A DNA stretch of 64,000 bases, from contig JBDHZC010000008.1 of assembly GCA_039811685.1 (NCBI GenBank), forward strand, positions 76,707 through 140,706. The letters run 5' to 3'. The notes under the pieces are model-generated. The model was not told the DNA's origin and did no database searches. It worked only from the letters and a program-made list of their open reading frames with translations. The DNA comes from Armatimonadota bacterium (lineage in GTDB: Bacteria > Armatimonadota > UBA5829 > DSUL01). Within the stretch, counting starts at the first letter, position 1. The number at the start of each line of letters is the position of its first letter. The position numbers were made by a program, and so were the translations under genes. This document shows positions 41,503 to 61,594 of the stretch, one piece after another.

Positions 41503-42909
41503 CTAGTGGAGGGTGAGGTCACTGTCTGACTGAACAACGACACATGGAAAGTCGAACCCCTGGTCTCGCCAGTGAGTGGAAATTCCGCGTGCCGTCACAA
41601 AGGCGCCCGCCGGAGGCGAAACCGCGTTTTCTGGTAGCACGATGCGTAACCCCTGGCTTACACTGTCTTGAGCCCCGGACCCGTCATCCAGATAGAAGAA
41701 CCCGCTTCCGGTCAGGCGTACGCGCCCGGCGACCTGCACCAGCAACCCACCGTTGTAAAGCGAACTGGAAAGCGCCGTGCCAGTAATCCAACCAACCGGC
41801 CGGCCGCCCACGTCACTGCAACGGATGCGCATCGGTATGACGGGTTGCGAGCCGCTCGAGCGCGTGAGAAGCGCAACATTGAACATGCGCTCCGGGCCGT
41901 CAGCGGAAAATTCACCCTGTAGAGACGCCACACGGTCTCCGGGAGTAAGCGCTGACGTAACACCTGTTAGGCGTACAGCCGCGGATCGATCTGCGCGTTC
42001 GAGCCAGACGTTTCCGGACAGGACGCGCGATACTCGCAGATCCTGAGCAAGCTCTACAGGAGCGTAGTCTGGAGAGTTGCGCAGAGCGCCACCGAGTGAG
42101 GCGTAACTGTGAAACCGGACAGACTCGCCCATCGCGAGAAGCGTTGCAACGGCCGGGTTGCCAAGTGTTGATGCGATGCCGATTCCCGGACCGGACGGCG
42201 CCGGTTGAGACGGTGGAATAGGGACAGTCGAGCTTACAGTCTGGGAGACGAAGGAGTCAAGGCTGGCGCTTTCCCCCGGGCCATCCACCGAGCTCCACTT
42301 AGTCTGCGCAAGGAGAAGCGAATTACGGAGGGACCCGTAAACTGCTTCATCTCCAATAAGTGGCACGCCGGAGGAGCCAAATGGCAACGAGTGCAGGAGG
42401 TCTGCGACTGCCGGGGCGTGGCGCAAGTCCTGCACAACTCGCCACCGCCAGACTTCCCGGTGGTTTTTCGCACTTGAAGTCTCACCTGGGAGCTTTGCCG
42501 GCGTCTGAGTGTTGTAATCGAGCGTCAACTCAAACATTGTCCCTACTGGCAGATGCAGAAGTGGACGCCAGAGCGCAACGGCCTGGCCAGACTGAACGGT
42601 TTCGCCCGCTAAATCTGGGCAGGTTGGGCAGAACTGACGCATAGTGACATTCGCAAGCGTATGACTGATTCCCACCTGCGCCGCAGCAACAAAGTTTGAC
42701 CAGTTAGTCCCAGGATCGATAGCCAACACGCCGGGCGCCGCAACATCGCCGTACGTGGAGCCGAACCTGCCGCGCCACTCCAGTGGATAACCGTCCGAAA
42801 AGACGTAGTTGGCAGGCCACAGCGGAACGGTGGGGTGAGTAATCTGTTCAGAGGCGACAGCGCAGGCAGTCAGCTCTATTGCCAGACAGACAAAGAGGGT
42901 GAACTTCAC
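41503..42909 (-). CDS. Secreted hypothetical protein: unknown N-terminal domain + C-terminal tandem OB-fold-like tail
   Basis: Signal peptide; N-terminal domain homologous to the neighbouring 42906-43754 protein; tail with PGDRV...G, VGG, N.GLLVQVAGRV...FFYLDDGSG...GLRI...RGIS. Confidence 0.7.
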   Translation of the reverse strand: MKFTLFVCLAIELTACAVASEQITHPTVPLWPANYVFSDGYPLEWRGRFGSTYGDVAAPGVLAIDPGTNWSNFVAAAQVGISHTLANVTMRQFCPTCPDLAGETVQSGQAVALWRPLLHLPVGTMFELTLDYNTQTPAKLPGETSSAKNHREVWRWRVVQDLRHAPAVADLLHSLPFGSSGVPLIGDEAVYGSLRNSLLLAQTKWSSVDGPGESASLDSFVSQTVSSTVPIPPSQPAPSGPGIGIASTLGNPAVATLLAMGESVRFHSYASLGGALRNSPDYAPVELAQDLRVSRVLSGNVWLERADRSAAVRLTGVTSALTPGDRVASLQGEFSADGPERMFNVALLTRSSGSQPVIPMRIRCSDVGGRPVGWITGTALSSSLYNGGLLVQVAGRVRLTGSGFFYLDDGSGAQDSVSQGLRIVLPENAVSPPAGAFVTARGISTHWRDQGFDFPCVVVQSDSDLTLH

Positions 42910-43754
42910 CTTTCACCCTCCCGCGGATGCGCCACCGGAAGGCGAGAGAGCACATAGGCCACTTCAGTCTGCAGTTTGCAGCAGGCCGGGTGCTCCGAGC
43001 TCTGGACAACGCCGCCAGAAGCGCACCCTGAAGCGAGCGCCTGGGCTATTTGCTGGAGGGCTGAGCGCTGTGCCGCTGAATCTCCGCTCTCTTCTGACGT
43101 CAGCGCTTGTTGTGAAAGCGGGATCAACAGACTCGCTGCTATGTCTGAAAGCGCCGGAGAGCCTTTTCCGCTAGAGTCTGTCTCCCTCAGTAGCTGCAGA
43201 ACCAGCCGCACGCAGCGCGTGTCACTCGCCAACAACCATGTCCATTTTTCGGTGTGGACAGTACCGGGCGGATTTGGTCCGGTTCCGTCATCGTCATAGG
43301 GCACGCTGGTGAAATAGATGATCGTCAGCTCCCATCGCGTCCCGGCAGGCTCGTACAAAAGCGGCCAGCGCAACCTGACAGTATTATTCTGTGTCAATGT
43401 GCCAGATGGAAACGAACTGGAACAGGTTGCAGAGGCGGGACGTATCCGCTTGAGCGTCACCGAGTGCACAGTGTAGGGCACCCTGTCAGCGGCAGCGCCC
43501 AGAAAATTCGACCAGTTTTCGCCCGGAGAGATGTGCAACACTCCGGGGTAAACTGGCGTACGCGGAGAAGTGCCGCTATACCCCGCCTGCATGCCTGTCT
43601 GTGGATCAATCCTTCCCGGGTAGGCGGAGAAAACCTCTATGGTCGCATGACTCAATTCACCGCTGGACATCGCGGGGCAGAGCAGCACAGCGCAAAACAC
43701 GGCAGCGCGAAACAGAACCATAATCCTCGCGTATCCGCCAGTGTCGAATTTCAT
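42906..43754 (-). CDS. Secreted hypothetical protein, paralog of the downstream gene's N-terminal domain
   Basis: Signal peptide; PGVLHISPGENWSNF, WPLLYEPAGTRWELTI; GTGA stop/start overlap with the next gene. Confidence 0.7.
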   Translation of the reverse strand: MKFDTGGYARIMVLFRAAVFCAVLLCPAMSSGELSHATIEVFSAYPGRIDPQTGMQAGYSGTSPRTPVYPGVLHISPGENWSNFLGAAADRVPYTVHSVTLKRIRPASATCSSSFPSGTLTQNNTVRLRWPLLYEPAGTRWELTIIYFTSVPYDDDGTGPNPPGTVHTEKWTWLLASDTRCVRLVLQLLRETDSSGKGSPALSDIAASLLIPLSQQALTSEESGDSAAQRSALQQIAQALASGCASGGVVQSSEHPACCKLQTEVAYVLSRLPVAHPREGER

Positions 43755-44026
43755 CCTCAGATTCCACTCCCTTCTTTAGAAAGTGTACCAGCCGGCCAGC
43801 CGTACGTAAAGAGATGAGTTGGTGTCTGTGCAACAGGACCACGGCAATCGGCTGCGAAAGGCATGCAAAATGCTTGCGTCCTCCGTGTCACGAGAACACA
43901 CGAGTGGAACGTCTAAAGAATTGCAAACGACTGCTGACAGCGTCACTACCTGGCGACACTGCGCATAAAAGCATAAAACAGCGGGGTGTGAACAGAGCCG
44001 AAAGCAGGGAAAAACGACGTTGTCTC

Positions 44027-44055
44027 TTGACTTGGCGGCTACGCAGTGGTAGGCT
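44027..44055 (+). promoter_or_regulatory. Sigma70-type promoter TTGACT-N17-TAGGCT
   Basis: Near-consensus boxes with a 17-nt spacer about 60 nt upstream of ATG 44117 (GAGGAGG RBS). Confidence 0.55.
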
Positions 44056-44116
44056 AGTTGAGAGTGGGAGTCTATCTCATTTTGACTCAAGAACCAGATG
44101 AGAGGAGGTTCTTCTA

Positions 44117-45106
44117 ATGGCTGGATTGCGATCTAAAGCAGCGCGCACTGCGCTGGGTGCATTTGTTCTTCTGGCTGGCTGCGCGGTATCTTCACTTGCG
44201 CAGAGTGGTGTCGTTAGCCCCCGTCTGGGCCCGGATGCCACAGTCCGCGGTTCTGGAGTGGTCAATATTGGACCGACCTCAGCACTGCCGATGCAACTGC
44301 AGGCAATCTTTCACCTGGACATCGCCGTATCTGGCAACCAAAGCCAGGGCGGTTTTCTCTGGACAGAGCTGCGCCCTAACGGCGCGCGCAATGCCTATGT
44401 GGTGGCCCGGAAGATACTGGGGACGAAGTTCACCTCATCGAACTACGCCATCATTCAGGCAGAAGGGCTGCTGAACGGCAGACCTGCGACCATTACAATT
44501 GAAGCACTGGACGACCTGGACATGGACTGGATTCATGTTCATGCACAACCCACTGACTCTAAGCTGCCAGATTACGACAAAGCGGGAGGAGTTGCCCGCG
44601 GCGGAATCGTCATCTGGCACCGCCCGGCTGTGACAGCAGAAGTCAAGGGTGCAGGGTCAATCAAGATAGAGCGGCGCGGCGTACCGACGCCGCTGGCACA
44701 GATGGCGCACACGGGGAATTTCGTGTTCTCCGCAGCTAACACATCAGACGGCACAACCGGTACACTCCTCTTTCAGGAGCTCAGTCCGTTGACCCAGGTG
44801 TCCGTGCTGCGGCCAATTGCGCTGGTGCACATTCCGAAAGTCACTTCACTGAGAATAGAAGGAAATCTGGCCTATATCCAGGGACCTGGCTTGTTAAATG
44901 GAAAACCAGTCTGGGTGTACGTAGAAGCCTCAGATACGAGCAAGCCGATTGCTATTGGAGATGCAACTGTCCCCAATCCACCAGATCACCTCTCGATTAC
45001 ATGCACGGCTCTGGGCGCCGACAGCCTTCTCCCGATCTATCAGGCTGCGGGTGACGTTTTCCGCGGCGACATTGCGATAACAAGGGCGAGCGTCACTGCT
45101 CCGTAG
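44117..45106 (+). CDS. Secreted protein with two tandem all-beta repeats (post-COAP-1-like)
   Basis: Signal peptide or possible lipobox LAGC; two ~130-150 aa units, each V.G.G.I...F...G...G.LNG.P..I.IEA.D...D...I...Y..AG.V.RG.I.I. Confidence 0.65.
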   Translation: MAGLRSKAARTALGAFVLLAGCAVSSLAQSGVVSPRLGPDATVRGSGVVNIGPTSALPMQLQAIFHLDIAVSGNQSQGGFLWTELRPNGARNAYVVARKILGTKFTSSNYAIIQAEGLLNGRPATITIEALDDLDMDWIHVHAQPTDSKLPDYDKAGGVARGGIVIWHRPAVTAEVKGAGSIKIERRGVPTPLAQMAHTGNFVFSAANTSDGTTGTLLFQELSPLTQVSVLRPIALVHIPKVTSLRIEGNLAYIQGPGLLNGKPVWVYVEASDTSKPIAIGDATVPNPPDHLSITCTALGADSLLPIYQAAGDVFRGDIAITRASVTAP

Positions 45107-45136
45107 AGCCGATTCTACAAACTGTGACTGATTGAA

Positions 45137-45166
45137 GAGGCCGGCGCTTGTCAGTGCGCCGGCCTC
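45137..45166. terminator. Hairpin between convergent genes, probable terminator
   Basis: GAGGCCGGCGC-N8-GCGCCGGCCTC, perfect 11-bp stem; weak U-tract. Confidence 0.55.
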
Positions 45167-45245
45167 GTTCTCTTCGGCAGTTGATTTGCGATAATGAGCG
45201 ACGACTGCCAGGTTTGGCAGGATGGGTCTGGAGAAAGCCTCTGAT

Positions 45246-45938
45246 TCAGTTGCGGCAAGAGCGCTTGAAAAGCCGGCTCCACCCGACCAGGCATGTGGAA
45301 AGGGCAAGCGCCGAGGACGGTTCAGGCACGACACTTGCCTGCGCTGAATCCAGACGCCCTGTGATGTCGGTATTGGGCGTATGACCGTCGTACACAACAG
45401 TAAAAGTCTGCAGGCCAATCGCGTGCGGAATGTTGACTGTTGTCTGGCTGGTTGGACGGACGGCAGAGAATGCGAAGGTCGCCAGAAGCAACCCGGAACT
45501 GTCCACGTTTATAGATCCGGACAGGCCACCCCACCCAGTGTACAACACACATCCGTCCGTGATATCTACATTGAGATTGTCTGGCTGCGGACTGAGGAAA
45601 CCTTCCACAAGCCAGAATGGCTGCGACGACGCCTTCTTGATTCCACTGAGGTAAAGCGGGTCCCACGTTACGATAACGTCAACGGCGGAGATCGAGGCTG
45701 GAGTCTGCGAAACGGCGAGGAGGTCCAGGCTCAGGGTCTCGCCAAGCGCAACCGTATGTGAGGAGGTCCGCCAGACGAGGTCGACCGCGGCTGGACACTC
45801 GCGAGCGCAGCCGAGAACAAACAGGCTCAGAATACAGACGACAAACCGGGCATTGCGACCGGTGCGGATGGAAACCAACGCCTGACTCTCCTTCAGACAC
45901 TGTGAGCAGAGGTTGCATCGTTGCTCACAGTTTTGCAT
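45246..45938 (-). CDS. Cohesin-like domain PEP-CTERM protein
   Basis: V.LGETLSLDL...ISAVDVIVTWDP.YL...LLATFAF.A cohesin pattern; C-terminal VPEPSS + hydrophobic stretch + basic tail. The true start is probably downstream of 45938. Confidence 0.7.
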   Translation of the reverse strand: MQNCEQRCNLCSQCLKESQALVSIRTGRNARFVVCILSLFVLGCARECPAAVDLVWRTSSHTVALGETLSLDLLAVSQTPASISAVDVIVTWDPLYLSGIKKASSQPFWLVEGFLSPQPDNLNVDITDGCVLYTGWGGLSGSINVDSSGLLLATFAFSAVRPTSQTTVNIPHAIGLQTFTVVYDGHTPNTDITGRLDSAQASVVPEPSSALALSTCLVGWSRLFKRSCRN

Positions 45939-46016
45939 GCGACGGGGCAGCTTTGCTGCTCTACTTCCAGTATACTACGCCGGTGGCCTGAGCGGGGAGA
46001 TGAGTTTTTCTCAAAC

Positions 46017-47063
46017 TCAATGGAGTACAGTGATGTACTGGCTTCTTGAGTGCAGTGTAGGCGTTGGAGAAGTGTGCTCCAGCCAACCGTCCGCACGAAC
46101 CAGAGCTCCTGACGAGACGTTGTGTCCCTGGGCATCCACACGGATAAGGTATCCGCTTGCATCATCCAGAACGAAGCCTGCGCCAGTGACGGAGGTTGCG
46201 CGGCCAACCAGTGAAAAGACGTGAGACGAAGCGGCAAGCTCAGCAGGGGGATTAGACGCATCCCGGTTGTTTATGTAAGTTGGAGTTGCCGTAGTGTAAG
46301 AGGCAGATCCCACCGAGACATTGCCAAGGCCATCTGTGGCTTGCAGACCGAAAGAGTGCACTCCCTGTATGGGATCGGCCGTGGCAGAGAACACCCAGAT
46401 GCCATTCTCCAGCGTCATAGGCTGCCCATCCAGTAATACCTGCGACACCCCCGCCCCATCCGTAGCGGTCACTTCAATGCGAATCTGTTGACCGGCGAGA
46501 GCCGCCGGCGGTCTTATAAAGGCGCTTAGATCAGGCCCGCTTGCGTCAACGACAATCTCCGGGCCATCGACAAGCGTCGCCGGTACCGCGCCATTGAAGC
46601 TGCTGAACTGTGACGCCGGGCTGCCGGTGCGGAAGGCCAGGCGGACCGAACCCTCCTGAGGACCCGCTTGAAAGTGAAGATACGCAAGATCTGAGACCAG
46701 CGTCGTCTGCTGCCCGCCCGGTGTGATGCCGGCTGCAAGACTCAGATTTCCCACCTGTGCCAGAATGTTGTTCTGCAGTACTACCGGGTACGGCTGTGCC
46801 GTGTAGCTACCGGAGACAAAAGTCAGCTTCTGAGGATCGTAGGCCACAAACGCCTGATAGCCCGCACATCCCGGCGCATCCAGATTGTCCTGGCTGAGTG
46901 TGAAGTCAATGGATGTTCCTGGTTTAACGTGGATGCCTGGGGCCGGACCGGTAATCTGAAGAGTTGGGCTGGCGCTGAGCCGTACAGCCAATACCAGCGC
47001 CACAGTCAGTGGCGCAAGGGCAGAGCGCAAAAGAGTGAAAACCTGAGTTTGCGTGACAGACAA
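46017..47063 (-). CDS. Secreted cohesin-like + Ig-like + single OB-fold-like tail protein
   Basis: VKPGTSIDF...GYQAFVAYDPQKL...LAYLHF.A (cohesin-like); ATDGAGVSQV...ATDGLGN (Ig-like); VGRATSVTGAGFVLDDASG tail. Confidence 0.65.
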   Translation of the reverse strand: MSVTQTQVFTLLRSALAPLTVALVLAVRLSASPTLQITGPAPGIHVKPGTSIDFTLSQDNLDAPGCAGYQAFVAYDPQKLTFVSGSYTAQPYPVVLQNNILAQVGNLSLAAGITPGGQQTTLVSDLAYLHFQAGPQEGSVRLAFRTGSPASQFSSFNGAVPATLVDGPEIVVDASGPDLSAFIRPPAALAGQQIRIEVTATDGAGVSQVLLDGQPMTLENGIWVFSATADPIQGVHSFGLQATDGLGNVSVGSASYTTATPTYINNRDASNPPAELAASSHVFSLVGRATSVTGAGFVLDDASGYLIRVDAQGHNVSSGALVRADGWLEHTSPTPTLHSRSQYITVLH

Positions 47064-47286
47064 ATCGTGAAAGAACTCACTCAGAAGATTACAGACTGAC
47101 GAATGGTTGAGTTGTCTCTATTATACCACTGCTCGGAGCGTAGCCAGGGCCGGCAGGTCGCAAGGAACATTAGTCCGGTAAAGCGCACAGGCAACAGCAA
47201 TGGAATATAATGCTCCTTATCAACGTTATTGTAAGTGATCCTTTCTCCCGGAAACGATTCGGGAGATATATTGCCCCTGCCAGCCT

Positions 47287-47532
47287 ATGACCGTTACCCT
47301 CAGAATGTTTGCACAGCTTCGAGAAGCGCTCGGTGCGTCACAGACGGAGTTGACGCTGCCAGAAAACGCCACCGGTCTCGATGTTTGGGCTTGGGTCCGC
47401 AGCTCAGCGCCCTCACTTCAGCTACCCCGAGAGGTCTGCCGCCTGGCAGTGAACTGTGAGTTTGTCTCTTTTGACAAGATACTCAGCGACGGGGACGAAG
47501 TCGCCATCCTCACTCCGGTGGCTGGTGGATGA
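47287..47532 (+). CDS. moaD: Molybdopterin synthase sulfur carrier subunit
   Basis: FAQLRE, AVN.E, DGDEVA..PVAGG C-terminal di-glycine. Confidence 0.95.
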   Translation: MTVTLRMFAQLREALGASQTELTLPENATGLDVWAWVRSSAPSLQLPREVCRLAVNCEFVSFDKILSDGDEVAILTPVAGG

Positions 47533-47969
47533 CACGCTTCGAGCTCACTGAGCGGCCGATTGACGTGCTTGCGCTACTGGCGTCCGTGGAGCAGAGTCAG
47601 GCTGGCGCAGTGAGTCTGTTTGTGGGGGCTGTCCGGGACCACAACGAATCAAAGGCTGTGTTGCGCCTGCAATACGAGGCCTATCCAGAGATGGCGTGCC
47701 GCGTCTGCGAACAAATTCTCGCAGACGCGCTGGCGCGATTTGACATCGTGAAGGCGGTCGCTGTTCATCGGACCGGAATGCTCGAGGTCGGTGAGGCTGC
47801 CGTCGCCATCGCCGTGTCCGCCGCGCATCGGGACGCGGCGTTCCGGGCCTGCCGATTCATCATTGACAGCATCAAAGAAAGCGCGCCAATCTGGAAGAAA
47901 GAGTTCTACGCGGACTCCGCCCGATGGGTAGTGTGCCACAGCCACAACGCCGCTGAGAGCGTCCTCTAG
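47529..47969 (+). CDS. moaE: Molybdopterin synthase catalytic subunit
   Basis: GAVSLFVG.VRD.N, L.YEAY.EMA, HRTG.L.VGE, AHR..AF, PIWKKE. Confidence 0.96.
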   Translation: MTRFELTERPIDVLALLASVEQSQAGAVSLFVGAVRDHNESKAVLRLQYEAYPEMACRVCEQILADALARFDIVKAVAVHRTGMLEVGEAAVAIAVSAAHRDAAFRACRFIIDSIKESAPIWKKEFYADSARWVVCHSHNAAESVL

Positions 47970-48955
47970 TGGCGACCCTGGTTGACGGCTTTGGCCGTGT
48001 AGCCACAAATCTGCGCATTTCCGTGACAGATCGCTGCAACATGCGCTGCCGCTACTGCATGCCGGCGAAGGGTCTGGACTGGCTCCCGAAGGACGAACTC
48101 CTGAGTTTTGAGGAAATCGCCCGGCTGACTCGCATCTTTGTCTCACTTGGTGTGGACAAGGTCCGCCTGACTGGCGGAGAGCCGCTGGTGCGTCCGGGAC
48201 TTGCGCAACTGGTGGGCATGCTCTCCAATGTCCCAGAGCTGAAGGACCTGGGGCTTACGACGAACGGTTACTACCTGGAGCAACAGGTGTCCGATCTGGT
48301 GAATGCCGGACTTCAACGCGTTAATGTCAGTCTGGACTCATTGAAGCCGGAGGTGTTCCGGGAAATTGTACGCCGCGATTTTTTCGAAAGAGTGATTGCA
48401 GGGCTGCATGCGGCAAAGCAGACATCCCTGCGGCCCATCAAAGTGAATGTCGTGATGCTGCGAGGAATCAACGACAGTGAGATTGAGGCATTTGGGCATT
48501 TTGCGCGGACGGAAGGCTTCGTCGTGCGCTTCATCGAGTTTATGCCGATCGGCAAAGATGACGGCTGGACTCCGGACAGCGTCGTCCCGACCTCGGAGAT
48601 AAAGGCACGGCTGGAAACTATCGCTGCGCTTCGGCCTCTCGAGGCAGACCATCAGTACCCCGCCGAGCGCTACGCGTTTGCGGACGGGCTGGGCGAGATT
48701 GGCTTTATCAGCTCTGTGACTGAGCCTTTCTGCGAAAGCTGCAACCGCATCCGTATCACCTCTGACGGCAAACTGAGGACGTGCCTGTTTGCGCTCGATG
48801 AGACCGACCTGCGCACGCCACTGCGCCGCGGAGTATCTGATGAAGAGCTTGCCGCGATTATCAAAGACGCGGTGTCAAGGAAGTGGGCAGGCCACCTGAT
48901 CAACCAGCCAGACTTTGTGAGACCCGACAGGACGATGTCCTCCATCGGCGGATAG
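47969..48955 (+). CDS. moaA: GTP 3',8-cyclase (radical SAM)
   Basis: LRISVTDRCNMRCRYC, RLTGGEP, RFIEFMP, FCESCNRIR...C, C-terminal IGG. Confidence 0.97.
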   Translation: MATLVDGFGRVATNLRISVTDRCNMRCRYCMPAKGLDWLPKDELLSFEEIARLTRIFVSLGVDKVRLTGGEPLVRPGLAQLVGMLSNVPELKDLGLTTNGYYLEQQVSDLVNAGLQRVNVSLDSLKPEVFREIVRRDFFERVIAGLHAAKQTSLRPIKVNVVMLRGINDSEIEAFGHFARTEGFVVRFIEFMPIGKDDGWTPDSVVPTSEIKARLETIAALRPLEADHQYPAERYAFADGLGEIGFISSVTEPFCESCNRIRITSDGKLRTCLFALDETDLRTPLRRGVSDEELAAIIKDAVSRKWAGHLINQPDFVRPDRTMSSIGG

Positions 48956-49029
48956 GCAGGAAAGAAAGCAGTTCGAGACGGCGCCAGTATCAAGTCCTCT
49001 GTCTGGAGCTTGACAACGACAGCCGTCCG

Positions 49030-49353
49030 CTACAACTGATATTTCGGGACAGATGAATCAATCCGGTCCGACCAGGCGTCAATTCCACCAGCGAGATTAC
49101 GCACATTCTCGAAACCCGCTCTCTGAAGGATTTTCACTCCCTCAGCGCTCCTCCCGCCTGACTTGCACTGTACGATTGTCGGCCTTGCCGGGTCCAACTC
49201 ACCAACGCGCCCCGGCAACTCTCCGAGCGGGATATTGCGCCCGCCGATTGTGGCGATCTCGCACTCAAACACTTCCCGAACGTCCAGCAACTCCAAATCC
49301 GCACCGGAATCCAGCAAAGCCTTCAATTCTTCGACAGTAGCGTCATTAGCCAT
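49030..49353 (-). CDS. Stand-alone rhodanese domain protein (resembles the MoeZ/MOCS3 C-terminal domain)
   Basis: LLDVRE, IPLGEL, CKSGGRS active-site loop, NLAGGIDAWSDRID.SVPKY; ATG 49353 preferred. Confidence 0.85.
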   Translation of the reverse strand: MANDATVEELKALLDSGADLELLDVREVFECEIATIGGRNIPLGELPGRVGELDPARPTIVQCKSGGRSAEGVKILQRAGFENVRNLAGGIDAWSDRIDSSVPKYQL

Positions 49354-49512
49354 CGTTGTTTTTCTCAAGTTTCCTTTCTTGTAGTTCCCGCTCAGTTTTT
49401 CCGAAGCAGCCTGCCTGATTGAGGATATCGAGGATGTGCCGTGCTCAATGCAGGGCACGCGCAGGCGATGCAGAGCATGAGCTATCATTGACTGCAGGAG
49501 AAGCTACTTCTG

Positions 49513-50433
49513 ATGTTTGATATCTCGCGCAAAATCTTTACTGCCAGACAGGCTACGGCAGAGGCAACGCTGACAATCGCCGCTTCAACGCGAGACGCCA
49601 TCGCGCGCGGACAAGTCCCCAAAGGCGATCCTCTTTCCGTAGCTCGCGTCGCTGCGATTCAGGCAGCAAAGAACACATCGCAGATTATCCCCTACTGTCA
49701 TCCTTTGCCAACCGAATACGCAGGCGTGGAGTTTGAAGTGGGCGAGAAAAGCATCCGTGTACAGGCAACCATAAAGACGACCTACAAAACCGGCGTCGAG
49801 GTGGAAGCGCTCACCGCAGCATCCGTTGCCGCGCTCACGCTGTACGACATGCTGAAAATGCTGGATGACACGATGGAGATACAGAGTGTCCGGCTCATCA
49901 GCAAGAAGGGCGGAAAGGGCGACTTTCGCGACAATTTCGACAGAGAGCTGTCGGCAGCGGTGTTGGTGATGTCGGATACGGTCTCATCGGGGCAAAAGGA
50001 GGACAGATCGGGAAGGCTTATTGTGGATCGTCTGCAGCATGAAGGGCTCCGAGTTGAAGAATACCAGGTGATTCCTGATGATACGGACGCAATTCGAAGA
50101 GCCTTGGAACGATTTGCGGATGAGCTGCATCTCGATCTGATTGTCACAACCGGTGGCACCGGTTTCAGTCCCCGCGACACTACTCCTGAAGCGATGAATG
50201 GACTGTTTGACCGGGAGATTCCGGGAATTGCGGAAGCGCTGCGAGCTTACGGCCAGGAGCGAACGCCCTACTCTATGCTTTCCCGCGGGCGCTCAGGTAT
50301 TCGCGGAAACTCCCTGATCATCAACCTGCCAGGCTCTTCCAACGGCGTTTCAGAGTCCCTGGACATGCTCTTCCCGGCAATTCTGCACGCCTTTCCCATG
50401 CTTTGGGGCGGAAAGCACCCACCAGAACACTGA
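49513..50433 (+). CDS. moaCB: Bifunctional MoaC / MoaB-MogA fusion
   Basis: KGDPL.VAR.A.I.AAK.T..IIP.CHP, TGVEVEAL, YDMLK (MoaC); then EDRSG, TTGGTG.SPRD.TPEA, NLPGS (MoaB/MogA). Confidence 0.93.
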   Translation: MFDISRKIFTARQATAEATLTIAASTRDAIARGQVPKGDPLSVARVAAIQAAKNTSQIIPYCHPLPTEYAGVEFEVGEKSIRVQATIKTTYKTGVEVEALTAASVAALTLYDMLKMLDDTMEIQSVRLISKKGGKGDFRDNFDRELSAAVLVMSDTVSSGQKEDRSGRLIVDRLQHEGLRVEEYQVIPDDTDAIRRALERFADELHLDLIVTTGGTGFSPRDTTPEAMNGLFDREIPGIAEALRAYGQERTPYSMLSRGRSGIRGNSLIINLPGSSNGVSESLDMLFPAILHAFPMLWGGKHPPEH

Positions 50434-50437
50434 GACT

Positions 50438-52256: not shown

Positions 52257-52267
52257 AGGCGTTCACT

Positions 52268-52996
52268 TCAGTGGCGGAATAACATCATGACACCCAGAGC
52301 GGCCAGCAGCGCGAGAATGATGTAGCGAAAAGGACCGGGTCTGCACTTAGCGGCGGCGGCATCCCCGAGCCAGCTCCCAAGAACGACGGCGGGCAGCAGC
52401 ATCAGCCCTTTCAGAACGAGAGGCCCGCTGACATGCCCGGCGATAATATGCCCACTCAGACTCACACAGCCGGTTGTTGCAAAAATGAGATACAGGGCGC
52501 TTCGCGCGAGTTTGGGCTCGTGGGTGAGGTGTATATACATGGCGATGGGCGGGCCAGCCGTTCCGAATGCTCCTCCCATAATTCCTCCAGCCAGCCCCAT
52601 AGAGATTCCCTTCGCGTGTGTAGGCTCACCGAACAGGGCTTCCTTCACCAGAGCTTGAGCAGCCGCCGAAGCGATAATCACTACGCCAAGAACCCGCAGC
52701 GCCCACGTCGCGTCCATACTCGACAGGACGATGACACCAATGGGCGAGCCGACAGCCGCAGCGCAGATCATCGGGATCATGGCGCGGACATTGACCATCC
52801 GGCGATTCATCGTCAACAGAATTGCCGCGCAGGTGGTAGCTATCAGAATACACAGCGGAACGACTGTGTGCATGTCCCAAACCTGGGACAGCAGTGGCAC
52901 AGCAAACAGGTTGATGCCAAACCCCGAAAAGCCTTGCAGGAATGCTGCGCCACCAAGAATCATCAGCGCGATCAGCAGGCCGGTGTCGTATGTCAA
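52268..52996 (-). CDS. TauE/SafE (TSUP) family sulfur-compound transporter
   Basis: QG.SGFG...P, GG.MGGAFG..GPP internal duplication, about 8 TM helices. Confidence 0.85.
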   Translation of the reverse strand: MTYDTGLLIALMILGGAAFLQGFSGFGINLFAVPLLSQVWDMHTVVPLCILIATTCAAILLTMNRRMVNVRAMIPMICAAAVGSPIGVIVLSSMDATWALRVLGVVIIASAAAQALVKEALFGEPTHAKGISMGLAGGIMGGAFGTAGPPIAMYIHLTHEPKLARSALYLIFATTGCVSLSGHIIAGHVSGPLVLKGLMLLPAVVLGSWLGDAAAAKCRPGPFRYIILALLAALGVMMLFRH

Positions 52997-53100
52997 AATG
53001 GCCCTCTAGTGAAAAGTATTTCTCAATTCGAGCTTTGAGTGGAGAATACCTGCACACAGTGGGAGGAGAGAAGGGTCAGCGCGGCCAACCTGACTGTATT

Positions 53101-55368
53101 GTGCGTGTTGCAACATTGGCGTTCGCAGCGGTTCTAGTCCTGACAGCCAGTTTTTGCTCGCCTGGGTTCACCCGTAACCTTCTCAGCAACCCCGGGTTTG
53201 AAGGCCGGAGCTCGGGCGGCGGTACTCTGGAGGGCTGGAGCAGCTATGCAATGGAGGCAGAGCAAGCAAAGTTCTTCTCCACTTCACAGGGGCGCGCTGG
53301 CAAGCACAGCGCGGCGATCACGAATGAGGGCGGTGAGCGCGCGCTCCTGCAATCCTCCCGCATCCCCGTTGTCCCCGGCGAGAAACTAAGCGCAAGCGTC
53401 TGGGTGCGCGGCAAGGATTTCGCCGCAGGGCGTGGAGGTTCGGCGGTATTCACACTCGCGTGTCTGGACAGCGCCGGCCGCTACTTCAACTGGTTCCGCT
53501 TCGGTGAAAAGAACGTCGGCGCAACGTGGAGACAACTCCACGGACAAATGGTAGCGCCGGAGCGAACAGCTTTTGTGGTGATGCAGCTTGGACACAATCA
53601 CTCCAGCGGAACCCTGTTTTTCGATGACGCATCGCTCGAAGCCGAACGCGAGATGGTGATCCGGCTTGGCGTACGGGAAGAAATGCGACCCGGGAAAGCC
53701 ACTATTTCCGCAACGATAATCAACCGAAACCATTGGAAAGGTCTGGCGAAGCTGACAGTAACAGACGGCAAGGACGAAGGCGGAGAGCTTGTGCGATTAT
53801 CTGGCGCTGCTCAACAACGCTGCACGGTAGTCGTACCTTTGGCTTCTGGAGACAGAAAGCTCACGGCCTCTCTGACTGACCCTGCTGGTCAGGTCGTTGC
53901 AAGGTCACCCGAGGTGAGCGTACGCGTGCTGAGCGATCTGGAGATGGACCCACCGGTCCCGACACACTTTTGCCTGGAGGATGGTCAGCCGTATCTGTCC
54001 CAGAGGTTGTGGGTGCAGGCTTCGGCACAAGAGCTCAGAGGCGCAAAAATCCGCCTGGAGATGCGTTCTCCACTCTTTCCAGAGACTCCGCGTGCGGAGG
54101 TAGAGGCCAAACCGGGACGCGTGGACATCAGTCTCGAGGCTCCAGCGAAAACAGCAGATTGGGAACTGACAGCGTCTCTGATCTACCCTGACGGACGCAA
54201 GATAGTCTCCTCGCAGGACTGGCACGTCATCACCAGAGATCAGGCTCGAGTAGATCTAAACGACACGGGGTTTCCGGTGGTTGGCGGCAAACCGTTTTTT
54301 CCGCTCGGTACGTTTAATAGCGGCAAGTACGAGCTGATGAAGGAGACCGGATTCAACACTGTGCACGCATGGAACCGCGCCCGCACCACAGGGGGCCTGC
54401 ATCCGCGACACCAGCCAACGAAGGACTTTCTGGAGGATGCGCAAAAAGCCGGAATGATGGCGGTGTTGATGCTTCCGAGTTCGCTGGCGCAGGAGGGAGA
54501 CTGGCGGGAATACCGGCGCAGAATTCGAATGTTCCGCAATCACCCGGCGCTGCTTGCGTGGGACGAAGAGGAGGGCGTGGCGCGCGGCGAAATGAAGCCG
54601 GAGCTGCTGGAGAAGATGGTGGCGATTTTGCGCGAGGAAGACCCGAATCACCCGTTCTGCCTGGCGGATAGCTATGACGTGATCCGCAAGGTTGACAGAC
54701 GTAACTTCTTCGTTGACCGCCTGATGGATATCGGCATGTGGTGGTACTATCCGATTCCACTTGAAAACTCAGACGTCTCACCGCTGGATGGTCAGGATCA
54801 GCCTTTGCCAACACTGGAGCTGAGACCGCCAATTTTTCTGGCTGAAGCGCAGACCAAAAAGCCTCTGTGGGTGGGGCTGCAAGCCTACCGCAACAAGAAG
54901 CGGCCAGATACGAGGCTTCCGAATCCACAGGAATACCGGGCGATGGCCTATTTGACACTCATCTACGGCGCAAAGGGCCTGTTCTACTATATGGGGCCGA
55001 GCGCAGGGGTTGTCGAAGGGGAGAAGGACCCGCACCCGTGGGGATACCTGCACACGCTGGCGCCGGAGTTGGCCTCATTGGAGAACGTCCTCACTACTCA
55101 TCCAGCCTCACCGCCATCTGAAATGGACAGATCGCCGATAAGCTCCCGTCTTTGGGAAGTGGGGGGAGAATACACGCTGATCACCGTCAACCGGACGAAA
55201 TCCGCAGTGAGCACTGAGATCACCGCGCCATATGCGTCAGTTGTGCGCGTAAAATCAGAAGACAGGACGCTTAAGCCAACTAACAACGTCCTGCGTGACA
55301 GCTTTGAACCCTACGGGGTACACATCTACCAGTGGTCAGGTAAACCGCCTGCGGCCACCTCTGATTAG
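53101..55368 (+). CDS. Secreted CBM4/9-like + putative TIM-barrel glycoside hydrolase
   Basis: Signal peptide; NLLSNPGFE...FFDDASL (CBM-like); GKPFFPLG, GFNTVH, HPALLAWDEEE, DPNHP, KPLWVGLQA, GAKGLFYY. Start uncertain (53059 or 53101). Confidence 0.6.
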   Translation: MRVATLAFAAVLVLTASFCSPGFTRNLLSNPGFEGRSSGGGTLEGWSSYAMEAEQAKFFSTSQGRAGKHSAAITNEGGERALLQSSRIPVVPGEKLSASVWVRGKDFAAGRGGSAVFTLACLDSAGRYFNWFRFGEKNVGATWRQLHGQMVAPERTAFVVMQLGHNHSSGTLFFDDASLEAEREMVIRLGVREEMRPGKATISATIINRNHWKGLAKLTVTDGKDEGGELVRLSGAAQQRCTVVVPLASGDRKLTASLTDPAGQVVARSPEVSVRVLSDLEMDPPVPTHFCLEDGQPYLSQRLWVQASAQELRGAKIRLEMRSPLFPETPRAEVEAKPGRVDISLEAPAKTADWELTASLIYPDGRKIVSSQDWHVITRDQARVDLNDTGFPVVGGKPFFPLGTFNSGKYELMKETGFNTVHAWNRARTTGGLHPRHQPTKDFLEDAQKAGMMAVLMLPSSLAQEGDWREYRRRIRMFRNHPALLAWDEEEGVARGEMKPELLEKMVAILREEDPNHPFCLADSYDVIRKVDRRNFFVDRLMDIGMWWYYPIPLENSDVSPLDGQDQPLPTLELRPPIFLAEAQTKKPLWVGLQAYRNKKRPDTRLPNPQEYRAMAYLTLIYGAKGLFYYMGPSAGVVEGEKDPHPWGYLHTLAPELASLENVLTTHPASPPSEMDRSPISSRLWEVGGEYTLITVNRTKSAVSTEITAPYASVVRVKSEDRTLKPTNNVLRDSFEPYGVHIYQWSGKPPAATSD

Positions 55369-55518
55369 CCAGAAACTCTGATATCCGCTGCTTGCTGGCG
55401 GAAAAGTGGTTGTCTGTAAGGTGCAGAGCTTGTGCCACAGAGTCAACTGTGTGTCTGGCTTTGTGCTAAATGGCACTCCACCCCTGGCGTACAGTCTGGA
55501 GAGAGTGAGTCCGTGAAA

Positions 55519-57789
<2,271 letters not shown>

Positions 57790-57808
57790 GCAGCACGCAC
57801 ATCAGACT

Positions 57809-58651
57809 ATGTCCAGACCTGAGCACTCTGATCTGCGCAAAGCCACTGCCTCCGCACCCGTACTCCAGGTGCGTGAGAAAACCGGCAAGATTGTTGAAGA
57901 TGCGCTTGTCGTTGAAGAGCCGCTTGAGATTCGCCTGGGCGGACGAGCTTTCTCCGTCACGATGCGCACTCCGGGGCAGGACTACGATCTCGTGCGAGGC
58001 CTGCTCTTCACCGAAGGGATTATTCGGTCGAAGAGCGAGATCGGAGCCATTCAGTACTGCCACGACGAGAGCAGCGACACCGGCGAGTCCAACATCATCA
58101 ATGTCCACCTTGCCGGCGTTGAGGTTGCAGACCGGCTGTGGCAGAGAAATCTGATGGCGGGATCGAGCTGTGGGCTGTGTGGGAAAGCCACTATCGAGGC
58201 GCTTTCGGAGGCGGCTTCGCCCGTGAGGTGGAGCGCGCGCGTACGAGGATCGACTCTCTCTCAGCTTCCGGGCAAGCTGAGAAGCGCACAGGTAGTCTTT
58301 GAGCGCACAGGAGGGTTGCACGCAGCGGGCATCTTCGACACCAACGGGGAGGCGCTGGCCATCTGTGAAGACATCGGTCGGCACAACGCCACAGACAAGG
58401 CCATCGGACGGGGTCTGGACGAAGGGTGGATCCCGGCGAATGAACCGCTGGTGTTGTTTGTGAGCGGACGGGCCAGCTTCGAGATCGTGCAAAAGGCACT
58501 GATGGCCCAGATGGGATTTGTTGCGTCAGTATCCGCCGCCTCTCACCTGGCGGTTGAGCTCGCGGAGCAAAACAACATTGTCCTGATCGGCTTCCTGCGA
58601 GACAGCGCGATGACGGTGTACACCCTGTCAAACCGCGTCGTCCTCGATTGA
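57809..58651 (+). CDS. fdhD: Formate dehydrogenase accessory sulfurtransferase
   Basis: EEPLEI, TMRTPG, SSCGLCG, TGGLHAA, EDIGRHNA.DK, SGRASFE.VQK. Confidence 0.96.
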   Translation: MSRPEHSDLRKATASAPVLQVREKTGKIVEDALVVEEPLEIRLGGRAFSVTMRTPGQDYDLVRGLLFTEGIIRSKSEIGAIQYCHDESSDTGESNIINVHLAGVEVADRLWQRNLMAGSSCGLCGKATIEALSEAASPVRWSARVRGSTLSQLPGKLRSAQVVFERTGGLHAAGIFDTNGEALAICEDIGRHNATDKAIGRGLDEGWIPANEPLVLFVSGRASFEIVQKALMAQMGFVASVSAASHLAVELAEQNNIVLIGFLRDSAMTVYTLSNRVVLD

Positions 58652-58711
58652 CTGCAAAGACGTTTCTTGAACGGGCACTGCCTGCAAAAGCCCGGTTCAC
58701 CCTGTCCACAC

Positions 58712-58750
58712 AAGAAAAGCGCTCCAGAGTTGAGTGAACCCTGGAGCGCT
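58712..58750 (-). terminator. Rho-independent terminator for the 58795-60426 gene
   Basis: AGCGCTCCAG...CTGGAGCGCT stem with a TTTTCTT tract on the minus strand. Confidence 0.7.
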
Positions 58751-58794
58751 CGAAGAGATCAGCACAAAGCGTAGAGCCGTTGCTGGAACAGGAA

Positions 58795-60426
58795 TTACTG
58801 CATAAAGATGATGCCGTCCCAGACACCGTTCTGATTGGAATCGACAAACGGCTCACCTTCGTCCCAGCGCCCGTTTGCGTTGGTGTCAGTGAAAACTTCC
58901 TGGACGGCACGCATCACCCGGACATTTGAAGCTGGAGACGCGCCGGACACCAACTGCCCCGCTGCAGCAGAGCCAATAATCCCTGGCACAATCGCATAGG
59001 AGCCTTCGATCCCGGCCAGCGAGAAGCTGCTGAGGACCTGAACTCTCACCCCCATCTGAAGATTGGTCCCGTCCGGTGAGAATGTGCTGCCGTCAATAAC
59101 GCCCGACCCATCGTCGATATAGAAGAAGTGCCGCGTGTCATCGACATAGACAACCTTGCCCCACGCGACTCCATAGCGAGCTATGTTGTTGAGCCCGAAC
59201 TCACGAGCCCAGCCGTCAGGGTCGGATGTATCCAGAGCGCGAAAGACACCTGGTTGGGCGACGTAGAGTCTGGCGTCGTTTGGCTCGGGTTCAAGCGGGC
59301 CCCACGGGCCCCCGCCGATATTGCCGTTGCGAACGTAGATGGGCTTGGGAAGGGCAAACGGGCCGGATGACACATCCACCTGGACGGCGTTAATCTCTTT
59401 CTCTCCATTGCGCTTGACGTGCGTCCCGCCGTCGGCTGTCCTGTCCAGATTACCGACCACATGCACTTTGTCGCCCTGATGTACGGTCAATCCTACAGGC
59501 ACTCGAACACGGATCGCGTTGGAGTCGTCCTGAATGTAGAAACAGCGGTCGGTCAACTGGTCGGTTCCCGCAGTCACCACCTTACCTGAAATCTCAATGA
59601 GTGTTCCGTTAGCCGTGGCCTTCGCTTCGGCGATCGTCGCCGGGTTGGCCACCGTGACATCTCCCGTAACAACGATGTTGTCCACCCACATGTCGCCGGG
59701 AGCATCCTGATCAGGTATTCCCCGGTTTGAGGTGTAAAACGTGATACCACCAATGCGGTCAGGCTGTGTATTTGATACTGTCTTGATAAAAGGTTGTCCA
59801 CCACTGGGAGTGATTTCTGTCAGCGTCCCACCGCGCGGCCCAAACCAGATCCGATAGGTCTTGGCCGTCACGTCAGCGTCCACTTTGACAGTGTACCACG
59901 TATTCGGCTGGTAGGTTGCAGGACTGAGATCGTTAGTAATTCCGGTTGTTTTTGTCTGATAGGAGACGGCCCCCGGCCCCCCACCGATAGAGTAGTACTG
60001 CAGCCCCTCGAAAGTTATGCCTGTCGCCCAGTTGGCCCCCGTTGTCGGCGTGCTTCCGTTGGTCAGGCGCATGCCGAAACCGGCCGTGTTCTGGAAAAAG
60101 TAGGCGTCATACTGCGCAACAACGTGTCCACTGGTTACGGATGTAAAGCTCCGGTATATCGTGGTATTCAGATTACTCAGTCCGTTGTCGTCGTGGAGCA
60201 GCATCACGCGGTTGCCAGATGGCGGCGCGCCGTCAGCAACCGTACCGTAAATGTCAACTGCGTTAGCCCTTGCGCCCGACCACCCCGGAGGCAAAGTTGG
60301 CGGACTTGCAGTGTTAACCGGATCCAAGTCAAAATTGTCAGATAACACCGTCACAGTAGCCGCGCCCGCGAACGAGCAGAGCGCCAGCATTGTTGCCAGC
60401 GCTACCCCTGTCACCCACTTCTGCAT
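58795..60426 (-). CDS. Secreted lectin-like domain + tandem OB-fold-like tail + DxNxNG Ca-binding repeats
   Basis: Signal peptide; SDNFD...WYTV.VDAD...TY...VDNIVV beta-sandwich; TIAEAK...GKVVTA...FYIQD...GDKV...FFYIDDGSG; ends DTNANGRWD-EGEPFV-DSNQNGVWD. Confidence 0.7.
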   Translation of the reverse strand: MQKWVTGVALATMLALCSFAGAATVTVLSDNFDLDPVNTASPPTLPPGWSGARANAVDIYGTVADGAPPSGNRVMLLHDDNGLSNLNTTIYRSFTSVTSGHVVAQYDAYFFQNTAGFGMRLTNGSTPTTGANWATGITFEGLQYYSIGGGPGAVSYQTKTTGITNDLSPATYQPNTWYTVKVDADVTAKTYRIWFGPRGGTLTEITPSGGQPFIKTVSNTQPDRIGGITFYTSNRGIPDQDAPGDMWVDNIVVTGDVTVANPATIAEAKATANGTLIEISGKVVTAGTDQLTDRCFYIQDDSNAIRVRVPVGLTVHQGDKVHVVGNLDRTADGGTHVKRNGEKEINAVQVDVSSGPFALPKPIYVRNGNIGGGPWGPLEPEPNDARLYVAQPGVFRALDTSDPDGWAREFGLNNIARYGVAWGKVVYVDDTRHFFYIDDGSGVIDGSTFSPDGTNLQMGVRVQVLSSFSLAGIEGSYAIVPGIIGSAAAGQLVSGASPASNVRVMRAVQEVFTDTNANGRWDEGEPFVDSNQNGVWDGIIFMQ

Positions 60427-60501
60427 TGAAGATCTCTCCTTTCACTCGGCGTCTTTGTCTCACGGCAGATGGTCACGCGCCACGACAAATCGCGCCTACA
60501 C

Positions 60502-60513
60502 TAATACGTATTA
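60502..60513. promoter_or_regulatory. Putative LacI-family operator TAATACGTATTA (perfect palindrome)
   Basis: Perfect 12-bp CG-centred palindrome overlapping a possible minus-strand -10 (GATAAT, 18 nt from TTGACC at 60534-60539). Confidence 0.65.
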
Positions 60514-60599
60514 TCCCGCAACAGCAGCCATTTGGTCAACAGGATAAATGATCTTGTTTGATGACAATCCGCATTTCTACCTGCATTTTGGTTGAAATC

Positions 60600-60643
60600 T
60601 TGACACGAGCGCGACGCAGTCGTAAACTAGTTAATACGCTTTA
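60600..60643 (+). promoter_or_regulatory. Sigma70 promoter TTGACA-N17-TAAACT followed by operator TAATACGCTTTA (60632-60643)
   Basis: Consensus -35, 17-nt spacer and near-consensus -10; the operator lies over the expected transcription start. Confidence 0.7.
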
Positions 60644-60715
60644 GAAGGAGCCGGCACAGGCTCCAGTCCGTTTTCTGGCAGCAGCCAGAGACGCGAAGAG
60701 AAGGAGAGAAAGACA

Positions 60716-61594
60716 ATGAGGTATCTCACACTTGCAGCGGCTGTCGGCGCTGCTGTCGTCCTCGCGGCCGGAGCAGGCCGTGCTGCACAGAATATTCCTG
60801 GCAGCGCTGACGACTTTGAGAGCTATGCTGTGGGAACACAGTTCAATACCGGATCGCCAACCGCCAATGACACGTGGGGCGACTCCAACACCTACGCAGC
60901 CGGCTACAGAACGAACACAGTGGAAGTGTATCCGCTCGGCGGAAATCCGAACAACCAGGTCAATCATACAATTGATCTGAACCAGCCAGGCAACCTCACC
61001 AAAAACACGCACCTGCGCACGGACTTTTTCGAAGTCCACAGCGGCACCACGAGCGGTGCGTACGATGTCAGCTTCGATTTCCGCCCGATGAGAGGCGCAG
61101 TGAAGGCTGTGCTGACGCGCGGTGGAAGCTGGACAAGCGGCACGGACTGGGTTGCGGCTCTGGCCTTCGACACGCCAACCAGCACGTTCTTCCCTGGAAT
61201 GAGCCACAGCGGCAACAACCTCGGCTACCAGCAGCAGACGGTTGCAGGCAACAACAAACAGCCCTACGTGGACGCTGGAGCGACCTACACGCCTGGCGAT
61301 TGGTACAGCGTGCTGATGCACGTTGACGTTGACAACTTCACGTACAGTGTGGCAATCGGCCCCTACGGCGGCCCGCTGACGCCTATACTGACTGACATGC
61401 CCTGGATTGTCGCAACCGCCACCGGTCTGCACCCATCTACGTTCGGAGGCCTGTACTTCGCTACGTCCAACGTGAAAGAAGAAGAAGGCGAGTTCATGCT
61501 GGATAACGTAAGAGTGGTCCCTGAGCCTTCCTCAGTTCTGGCGATGGCAGCCGGTCTGGGAGGATTGCTGCCAATCATGCTTCGCCGAAAGTAA
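60716..61594 (+). CDS. PEP-CTERM protein with lectin-like beta-sandwich domain
   Basis: Signal peptide; DDFESY...WYSV..HVD...TY...LDNVRV; VPEPSSVLAMAAGLGGLLPIMLRRK. Confidence 0.88.
   Translation: MRYLTLAAAVGAAVVLAAGAGRAAQNIPGSADDFESYAVGTQFNTGSPTANDTWGDSNTYAAGYRTNTVEVYPLGGNPNNQVNHTIDLNQPGNLTKNTHLRTDFFEVHSGTTSGAYDVSFDFRPMRGAVKAVLTRGGSWTSGTDWVAALAFDTPTSTFFPGMSHSGNNLGYQQQTVAGNNKQPYVDAGATYTPGDWYSVLMHVDVDNFTYSVAIGPYGGPLTPILTDMPWIVATATGLHPSTFGGLYFATSNVKEEEGEFMLDNVRVVPEPSSVLAMAAGLGGLLPIMLRRK

Follow-up and report, generated by a model that had tools for sequence, protein, structure and literature searches.

Two exported proteins encoded in the window, by which we mean a 64000-nucleotide stretch of the genome of an Armatimonadota bacterium (GenBank assembly GCA_039811685.1, contig JBDHZC010000008.1, positions 76707 to 140706 of the forward strand), end in a module of about 190 residues that consists of two oligonucleotide/oligosaccharide-binding (OB) barrels joined by a short conserved linker and that recurs in dozens of other proteins of the same genome. 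In recent tandem paralogues, this tail and PEP-CTERM, a motif of about 25 residues followed by a transmembrane helix and a basic end that is processed by exosortase, fill one and the same slot at the C-terminus. Not catalogued so far, the tail is a module of the C-terminal surface-address kind, built on a familiar fold, and what is new here is the quantified exclusivity of the two ends, their exact slot equivalence, the adjacency of their genes as tested against random placement, and the joint phyletic pattern of the tail with PEP-CTERM and exosortase. Our preferred explanation, to which we give about an even chance, is that the tail serves as a folded domain that retains exoenzymes non-covalently on the cell surface or within an exopolymer layer, in parallel to exosortase anchoring; surface retention, a ligand, and the lack of cleavage are what we infer from this pattern.

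A tandem OB module on exported proteins

Two genes of the window carry the module in full. Gene A (41503-42909, minus strand) encodes a protein of 468 aa with a signal peptide, a domain X at about residues 10-260, and the tandem OB module at residues 274-465 (41515-42090, minus strand), the stop lying three residues beyond, and gene E (58795-60426, minus strand; 543 aa) combines a lectin-like passenger with a tandem OB module that contains long insertions (residues 266-499; 58930-59631, minus strand) and a 44-residue repeat extension. Gene D (46017-47063, minus strand; 348 aa), which encodes weak cohesin-like and Ig-like domains, terminates in a single OB barrel corresponding to the second one (residues 256-348; 46020-46298, minus strand). 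The initial annotation had assigned the same tail to all three proteins, in D as a half copy, and had quoted its last 70 residues.

From the source genome (3.42 Mb in 15 contigs; labelled G000), 11075 open frames with a minimum length of 80 aa were called, and a profile of 190 positions, iterated from the tail of A over these frames, converged on 84 proteins (E ≤ 1e-4). The profile matches residues 274-465 of A with 156.5 bits and residues 266-499 of E with 120.0 bits, while D is matched only by profile positions 79-172, i.e., by the second barrel, with 17.4 bits or an E of about 7e-4 when rescaled by our own arithmetic to the 11075 open frames. The half tail of D also matches the C-terminus of C3:117372-119291 in phmmer (E 1.6e-7). 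Individual tails are not significantly alike in pairs, A and E sharing a 12-residue word (E 0.028 in a seven-sequence database) and A and D reaching an E of 4, so that profiles are required to recognize the family. The common tail was therefore recovered in full for A and E by profile but not by pairwise similarity, D appears from its sequence as a weak half copy with the second barrel alone, and the recurrent end turned out to extend well beyond the 70 residues quoted for it, to about 190 residues in two barrels. As had been expected, the tail proteins look exported: a hydrophobic N-terminus was detected by a crude test in 74/84 of them, and several of the remaining ten are contig-edge fragments or have over-extended starts.

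An alignment of 69 tails served as input for an AlphaFold2 model of residues 270-468 of A, which reached a pLDDT of 94.3 and a pTM of 0.90 and is predicted to form two beta-barrels at model residues 1-86 and 88-199. The OB-like character that had been read from the letters alone is borne out by this model: when run in VIA-align against 48161 chains, both barrels align to OB domains, which places them in the OB-fold superfamily. The best match is the N-terminal OB domain of MCM (Z 11.1, root-mean-square deviation 1.9, 85 aligned residues), and further matches include AsnRS (Z 10.9), RPA14 (Z 10.7), and YgiW (1nnx; Z 9.1). With the whole module, Foldseek found only weak matches in the PDB (best E 5.4e-4, TM 0.27). 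Comparison of the sequence profile with solved structures linked barrel 1 to an OB domain of 9sf8/9sf9 (E 8e-5) and barrel 2 to RPA14 (E 3e-4).

No Pfam or NCBIfam model covers the tail, and gene A as a whole, its tail included, has no match in either collection. Pfam families are patchy over the 69 tails, with tRNA_anti-codon (PF01336) matching 16/69 at E ≤ 1 (best 2e-7; the tail of A is without a match), RMI2 10/69, and BOF (PF04076) 2/69 at E ≤ 1; in NCBIfam, four families match one tail each, one of them being NF033681 (ExeM/NucH; 1/69, E 0.0033). Residues 260-331 of E, in the first barrel, weakly match BOF/YgiW (E 0.0017) with scores that fail the curated cut-offs (18.8 bits against 25.8 for PF04076 and 19.4 against 108 for TIGR00156). 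The BOF/YgiW-YdeI proteins, one of which is the YgiW found by VIA-align, are likewise extracytoplasmic bacterial OB barrels, but they are small stand-alone proteins rather than tandem tails. In the search listings and abstract openings of the literature on Armatimonadota secreted and PEP-CTERM proteins, OB-folds, choice-of-anchor domains, and SpnA, the module is not described.

The tail profile was also searched against 1.84 billion representative proteins, of which 9001 matched at E ≤ 1e-3, 5176 at E ≤ 1e-10, and 2580 at E ≤ 1e-30. The nearest protein clusters are unnamed and come most commonly from Armatimonadota (the phylum being known for 12 members), and such cluster names as exist are based on the passengers only, e.g., "uncharacterized lipoprotein YddW". 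A homologue search with the tail of A alone returned A itself only, the alignment together with longer proteins returned 12 proteins, none usefully named, and a related-locus search with a single tail found no relative. Within the class of the source genome, the tail is present in 37/41 genomes and 25/28 genera, with 2 to more than 78 scored copies per genome and at least 20 in most. When 251 genomes sampled evenly from the phylum were compared, only this class showed the expansion (27/30 genomes), and 10/221 genomes outside it had a single weaker match.

PEP-CTERM in the same slot

TIGR02595 has 39 matches in the genome at E ≤ 0.01. The set of PEP-CTERM proteins used here comprises 58 members, 47 of which were collected by a home-built profile and 11 by a regular expression, one of the latter being a 99-aa open frame of doubtful reality. 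Exosortase is encoded by three genes (PF09721, E 9e-58 to 9e-56). Six tandem genes at C7:77977-83955 (minus strand) encode a variant PEP-CTERM that starts with I-P-E-P-A-F-F-Q and that TIGR02595 does not report at E ≤ 0.01.

The two ends exclude each other, as the initial annotation had predicted: PEP-CTERM occurs in 0/84 tail proteins, and a PEP-CTERM-like end in 0/150 of the best tail representatives from the protein search, a sample that is ranked by score and favours multi-copy proteins. Their passengers, in contrast, are partly shared, since the passengers of 14/58 PEP-CTERM proteins have homologues that bear the tail (BLASTP, all E ≤ 1.2e-5) and five of these 14 match their immediate neighbour. 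Two tandem pairs, C6:79270-80079 with C6:80048-81493 (68% identity over 242 aa) and C5:113004-113831 with C5:111477-112859 (59% identity over 263 aa), show where the exchange takes place. In both, the two copies are homologous up to the last residue ahead of VPEP in the one and ahead of barrel 1 in the other. This is direct evidence for a shared slot of the tail and PEP-CTERM, as had been suspected from the window.

All six window genes on which that suspicion was based, A to F, were confirmed as open frames, and their translations have a hydrophobic, signal-peptide-like N-terminal stretch in 6/6 cases. Gene F (60716-61594, plus strand; 292 aa) combines a lectin-like passenger with a PEP-CTERM end at residues 268-292 (61517-61591, plus strand), which scores 17.5 bits against TIGR02595, above the 16-bit cut-off. 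It lies divergent to E across a gap of 290 bp, and the two passengers are paralogous (30% identity over 239 aa, BLASTP E 9e-15; phmmer E 1e-13). Gene B (42906-43754, minus strand; 282 aa) consists of domain X alone, with neither the tail nor PEP-CTERM; its stop overlaps the start of A by 4 bases, and it is a passenger paralogue of A (32% identity over 215 aa, BLASTP E 2.6e-18; phmmer E 1e-20). Both of these pairings stand as originally described.

The third pairing does not. Gene C (45246-45938, minus strand; 230 aa) was said to share the cohesin-like passenger of D and to end in PEP-CTERM, but no match was found between C and D at BLASTP E ≤ 10 or phmmer E ≤ 1e-3, and C has no Pfam Cohesin match; in D, Pfam Cohesin stays below threshold (20.1 bits against a cut-off of 24.1, E 7.8e-4). 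The PEP-CTERM part of the claim survives in weaker form: the end of C (residues 204-230; 45249-45329, minus strand) is degenerate and scores 14.2 bits against TIGR02595, below the 16-bit cut-off, but the layout of VPEP, hydrophobic stretch, and basic end is present and the end is recognized by the genome's own PEP-CTERM profile (E 6.2e-7). The small passenger of C is paralogous to that of a tail protein encoded on a different contig (C9:9633-10748, E 1e-25), next to a D-like gene, and is also homologous to the PEP-CTERM protein C4:256933-257586.

Such exchanges recall the "choice-of-anchor" families of NCBIfam, which are domains found with alternative C-terminal anchors. The likeness lies in one passenger family having different C-terminal anchors (E and F, C and C9:9633-10748, and the two tandem pairs), and the difference in that the concept names passengers and not anchors; among the window proteins, no NCBIfam choice-of-anchor model matched at E ≤ 1. 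We do not know of an OB tail among the anchors of these families.

PEP-CTERM genes and tail genes are also neighbours far more often than expected by chance. Within 300 bp of a tail gene lie 16/58 PEP-CTERM genes, compared with 0.82 expected under random non-overlapping placement, and 16 was reached in 0/3000 simulations. Seen from the other side, a PEP-CTERM gene lies within 300 bp of 17/83 tail genes and of 23/726 non-tail genes with a hydrophobic N-terminus, corresponding to an odds ratio of 7.9 (p 4e-8). Of the 18 pairs within 500 bp, 13 are co-directional. The enrichment recurs in G001, which belongs to another genus of the same family (9/40 within 500 bp vs 0.60 expected; 0/3000), gene spans in this genome as well as in G018 and G023 being approximated from open-frame lengths.

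The expectation that these neighbours would be paralogues held only in part, as 4 of the 18 adjacent pairs are clear paralogues, 1 is a weak one, and 13 are without a trace of paralogy; the enrichment itself holds in G000 and G001 and is weak or absent in G018 and G023. Mere tandem duplication was rejected as the cause of the adjacency, with 13/18 pairs unrelated and the neighbour's rank among 81 passengers scattered. The idea that the PEP-CTERM neighbours form one receptor family was rejected as well, the 58 PEP-CTERM proteins being so diverse in their passengers that they fall into 47 BLAST clusters, the largest with 3 members. Several of the PEP-CTERM neighbours resemble carbohydrate-binding modules (CBMs). 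At C4:293713-300103, for instance, a tail protein is followed by a small X25-PEP-CTERM protein with two pullulanase X25 starch-binding domains (E 3e-14) and by an alpha-amylase with the tail. The two groups differ in size, with a median length of 816 aa for the tail proteins and 254 aa for the PEP-CTERM proteins.

Across the 41 genomes of the class, in which related genomes are not independent of each other, the tail and PEP-CTERM are both present in 37 and both lacking in 4, with 0 discordant. The genomes without both, G011, G014, G020, and G021, are 99, 96, 91, and 88% complete, respectively, and are also without exosortase. This joint loss of tail, PEP-CTERM, and exosortase hints at a shared rather than a separate destination of the two kinds of proteins.

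A direct interaction could account for part of this pattern if the tail docked onto exosortase-processed PEP-CTERM proteins in a cohesin-dockerin-like manner, the small PEP-CTERM neighbour being an anchored receptor for the enzyme. The enriched and mostly co-directional adjacency, the unrelated passengers in 13/18 adjacent pairs, and the fact that the tail never occurs without PEP-CTERM in the class genomes all point in this direction. We nevertheless regard direct docking as very unlikely, given that 47 clusters of PEP-CTERM proteins are set against one conserved tail family, which leaves no common receptor surface, and that the adjacency is weak in G018 and G023.

Two S8 proteases of tail-less genomes, L161:1823-4360 (G011) and L162:1887-4349 (G021), carry a different C-terminal domain, likewise unannotated, which is about 230 residues long and contains a G-W-N-x-x-G-N-P-F motif. 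It was considered as a replacement tail and rejected, the domain being unexpanded in tail-less genomes with 1-2 copies, compared with 5 clustered copies in G000 (C1:714452-730424).

Position, passengers, and possible role of the tail

The initial annotation had foreseen many copies at the ends of exported proteins, and in G000 the last residue of the module indeed lies within 10 residues of the C-terminus in 68/84 copies, at a distance of 11-100 residues in 6/84, and of more than 100 residues in 10/84. The domains that follow the ten non-terminal modules are CBM-like, FGE-sulfatase, and metalloprotease-like, and one module sits directly behind the signal peptide (residues 25-218) with an FGE-sulfatase domain after it. 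Among the best 150 representatives, the last module ends within 10 residues of the C-terminus in 107 and is followed by more than 100 residues in 25; 31 have 2-6 copies of the module, some far from the C-terminus.

One way to read the terminal majority is as a true C-terminal sorting signal, in which a dedicated machinery would recognize the double barrel, export the protein across the outer membrane, and remove or modify the domain, as in the type IX secretion system (T9SS). The T9SS C-terminal domain of Bacteroidota is a single beta-sandwich of 80-100 residues. It resembles the tail in being a lineage-specific C-terminal domain on dozens of unrelated exoenzymes per genome, and the tail shares with a sorting signal its restricted expansion in one lineage and the slot of a known sorting signal. 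In contrast to the T9SS domain, however, the tail consists of OB barrels, is not strictly C-terminal, and is not single-copy. Of the 30 Pfam families matching the 69 tails, 25 were listed, and Por_Secre_tail is neither one of these nor one of the four NCBIfam families; no candidate machinery turned up, although no systematic search for one was made. The internal and N-terminal modules in 10/84 proteins and the tandem copies in relatives speak for a folded binding or retention domain and not for a cleaved sorting signal, which we consider improbable. The proposal of a C-terminal targeting module of the T9SS kind thus holds with respect to a recurrent tail but not with respect to a strictly terminal one, and overall the original observation is partly confirmed and its interpretation partly supported.

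The passengers offer a second reading. A Pfam scan of 54/84 tail proteins (and of 19/58 PEP-CTERM proteins) identified S8 proteases, right-handed beta-helices, GHL10, GH5/10/39, alpha-amylase, and glucoamylase domains among the tail passengers, as well as amidase_2, amidase_3, metallophosphoesterase, FGE-sulfatase, PQQ propellers, NAGPA, and, in 1/54 of the scanned tail proteins, Exo_endo_phos. Oligonucleotides and oligosaccharides are ligands of OB folds, many of these passengers degrade polymers, and the module is flexible in position and occurs in tandem, all of which would suit a substrate- or matrix-targeting binder of the CBM or nucleic-acid kind that is directed at an environmental glycan or at extracellular DNA and has no special relation to the surface or to PEP-CTERM. 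The best solved-structure sequence match of barrel 1 agrees with this: 9SF8/9SF9 is SpnA of Streptococcus pyogenes, described as a surface nuclease with four OB domains (PMC13601614). With respect to the SpnA/ExeM/NucH kind (NF033681), the match is weak and confined to one barrel, and the tails are found on many non-nuclease passengers.

Several points make such targeting unlikely. The passengers act on proteins, starch, peptidoglycan, and phosphoesters, substrates so disparate that a single targeting module for them would be surprising. The tails are acidic, with a median isoelectric point of 5.11 and values above 7.5 in 10/84, which argues against electrostatic binding of DNA. In SpnA itself, the N-terminal OB1-2 domains reportedly have little role in DNA degradation and contact complement and host proteins (PMC13601614). 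Nor would substrate targeting explain why the tail and PEP-CTERM exclude each other, replace each other in one slot, are encoded by adjacent genes, and are lost together.

We therefore return to non-covalent surface retention. The slot swap, exclusivity, adjacency, and joint presence and absence tie the module to the cell-surface context of PEP-CTERM, and the tail would then be a modular "address" that can be exchanged for PEP-CTERM. Of the two copies produced by a gene duplication, one would keep the exosortase signal while the other would bear the OB tail at the same junction; the mature protein would retain this tail as a folded, non-covalent binding domain, which may keep enzymes, for the most part large ones, on the cell surface or within the exopolysaccharide layer. 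In parallel, the PEP-CTERM proteins of neighbouring genes, most of them small and carbohydrate-binding, would be anchored via exosortase.

Compared with PEP-CTERM/exosortase (TIGR02595, PF07589; PF09721), the tail has the same slot, occurs in the same genomes, and is often encoded by an adjacent gene, but it is a 190-residue soluble double barrel without a transmembrane segment, can be internal or repeated, and is mostly found on large enzymes. By analogy, it would suit a domain that, like SLH or LysM, binds or retains regardless of its position in the protein. Gram-positive bacteria have LPXTG/sortase and SLH or LysM modules side by side, and the proposed analogy with SLH, LysM, GW, and CWB2 is that of a folded module, sometimes repeated, that is placed at either end of the protein and operates beside a covalent pathway; these modules have no sequence or fold relation to the tail.

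A number of observations weigh against non-covalent retention. The 68 copies at the very C-terminus would fit a sorting signal equally well, and the conserved positions of the tail are mostly glycines and turn residues with no obvious ligand site, the few conserved polar ones being the D-R behind the F-Y-x-Q strand and the turns G-E-R and D-D-G-S. In G018, the adjacency is weak (2/12 within 500 bp vs 0.10 expected; 16/3000 simulations), and in G023 it is not significant (2/52 vs 0.57 expected; 336/3000). The four tail-less genomes represent three genera in two families, the relatives among them being non-independent, and have 0-1 S8 proteases each, so that a general shrinkage of the exoproteome could explain the joint loss. 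Across the phylum, PEP-CTERM is present in 144/251 genomes, most of them without the tail expansion, and is thus independent of the tail. The passenger family of F, used as a query, was not found in 36/40 relatives, and the E/F pair of the window is therefore not conserved. Finally, the open-frame caller, the signal-peptide test, and the PEP-CTERM set were home-made and crude.

The mainly structural nature of the conserved positions and the lack of an evident ligand site would also suit a structural spacer, stalk, or folding helper without any address function, which would be C-terminal merely through the architecture of multidomain exoproteins in this lineage. This seems highly improbable to us, as a spacer has nothing to hold apart when it is the last part of a protein, and such a role explains neither the exclusivity with PEP-CTERM nor the replacement at one slot in paralogues that are 59-68% identical, nor why 2 to more than 78 copies per genome (at least 20 in most) are maintained across 25/28 genera.

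A more specific form of surface retention would be a two-tier display, in which PEP-CTERM-anchored small carbohydrate binders and OB-docked large enzymes share the same exosortase-dependent layer and C-terminal ends are swapped between the tiers. We regard this version as conceivable yet rather doubtful, and hold the same reserve toward its further element, namely that the layer consists of exopolysaccharide or of glycosylated PEP-CTERM proteins.

Neighbouring genes and meaning of the tail

The C-terminal extension of E (residues 500-543; 58798-58929, minus strand) consists of two Asp/Asn-rich repeats of the D-x-N-x-N-G-x-W-D kind, which resemble calcium-binding dockerin-type repeats. Repeats of this type recur in a paralogue of E and, arrayed, in two proteins of 1420 aa (carriers C2:467391-470084, C3:90291-94562, and C3:94683-98975). 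The two repeat-array proteins bear domain X, as found in A and B, at their C-termini. Domain X has no Pfam match above noise and is the last domain in four further proteins (C8:17011-18006, C2:530398-531648, C3:90291-94562, and C3:94683-98975); it, too, may be a module that recurs at protein ends.

Gene G (44117-45106, plus strand; 329 aa), located between the A/B and C/D pairs, encodes an exported protein that lacks both the tail and PEP-CTERM; it has no family match and a single paralogue, C1:590693-591685 (E 4e-23). The MoaA encoded at 47969-48955 of the window (plus strand) has its best matches, at 55-61% identity, in Ignavibacteriota and Bacteroidota. Among the MoaA loci kept, 0/80 are titled Armatimonadota, records close to the source genome possibly having been left out.

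LPXTG, PEP-CTERM, and the T9SS domain each reveal surface proteins from sequence, and each led to a secretion or attachment pathway. The OB tail marks about 84 proteins in one genome, matches 2580 clusters at E ≤ 1e-30, and is without a Pfam or NCBIfam model, and naming it would annotate the exoproteome of a poorly known group. The 59-68% identical pairs that differ only in their tails are ready constructs for comparing both routes. To our knowledge, the attachment partner of exosortase-processed proteins is unsettled, and the genomic tie between the tail and PEP-CTERM offers a handle on how these proteins are attached. If the two-tier display were true, the OB tail would be the first non-covalent partner module described for the exosortase system.

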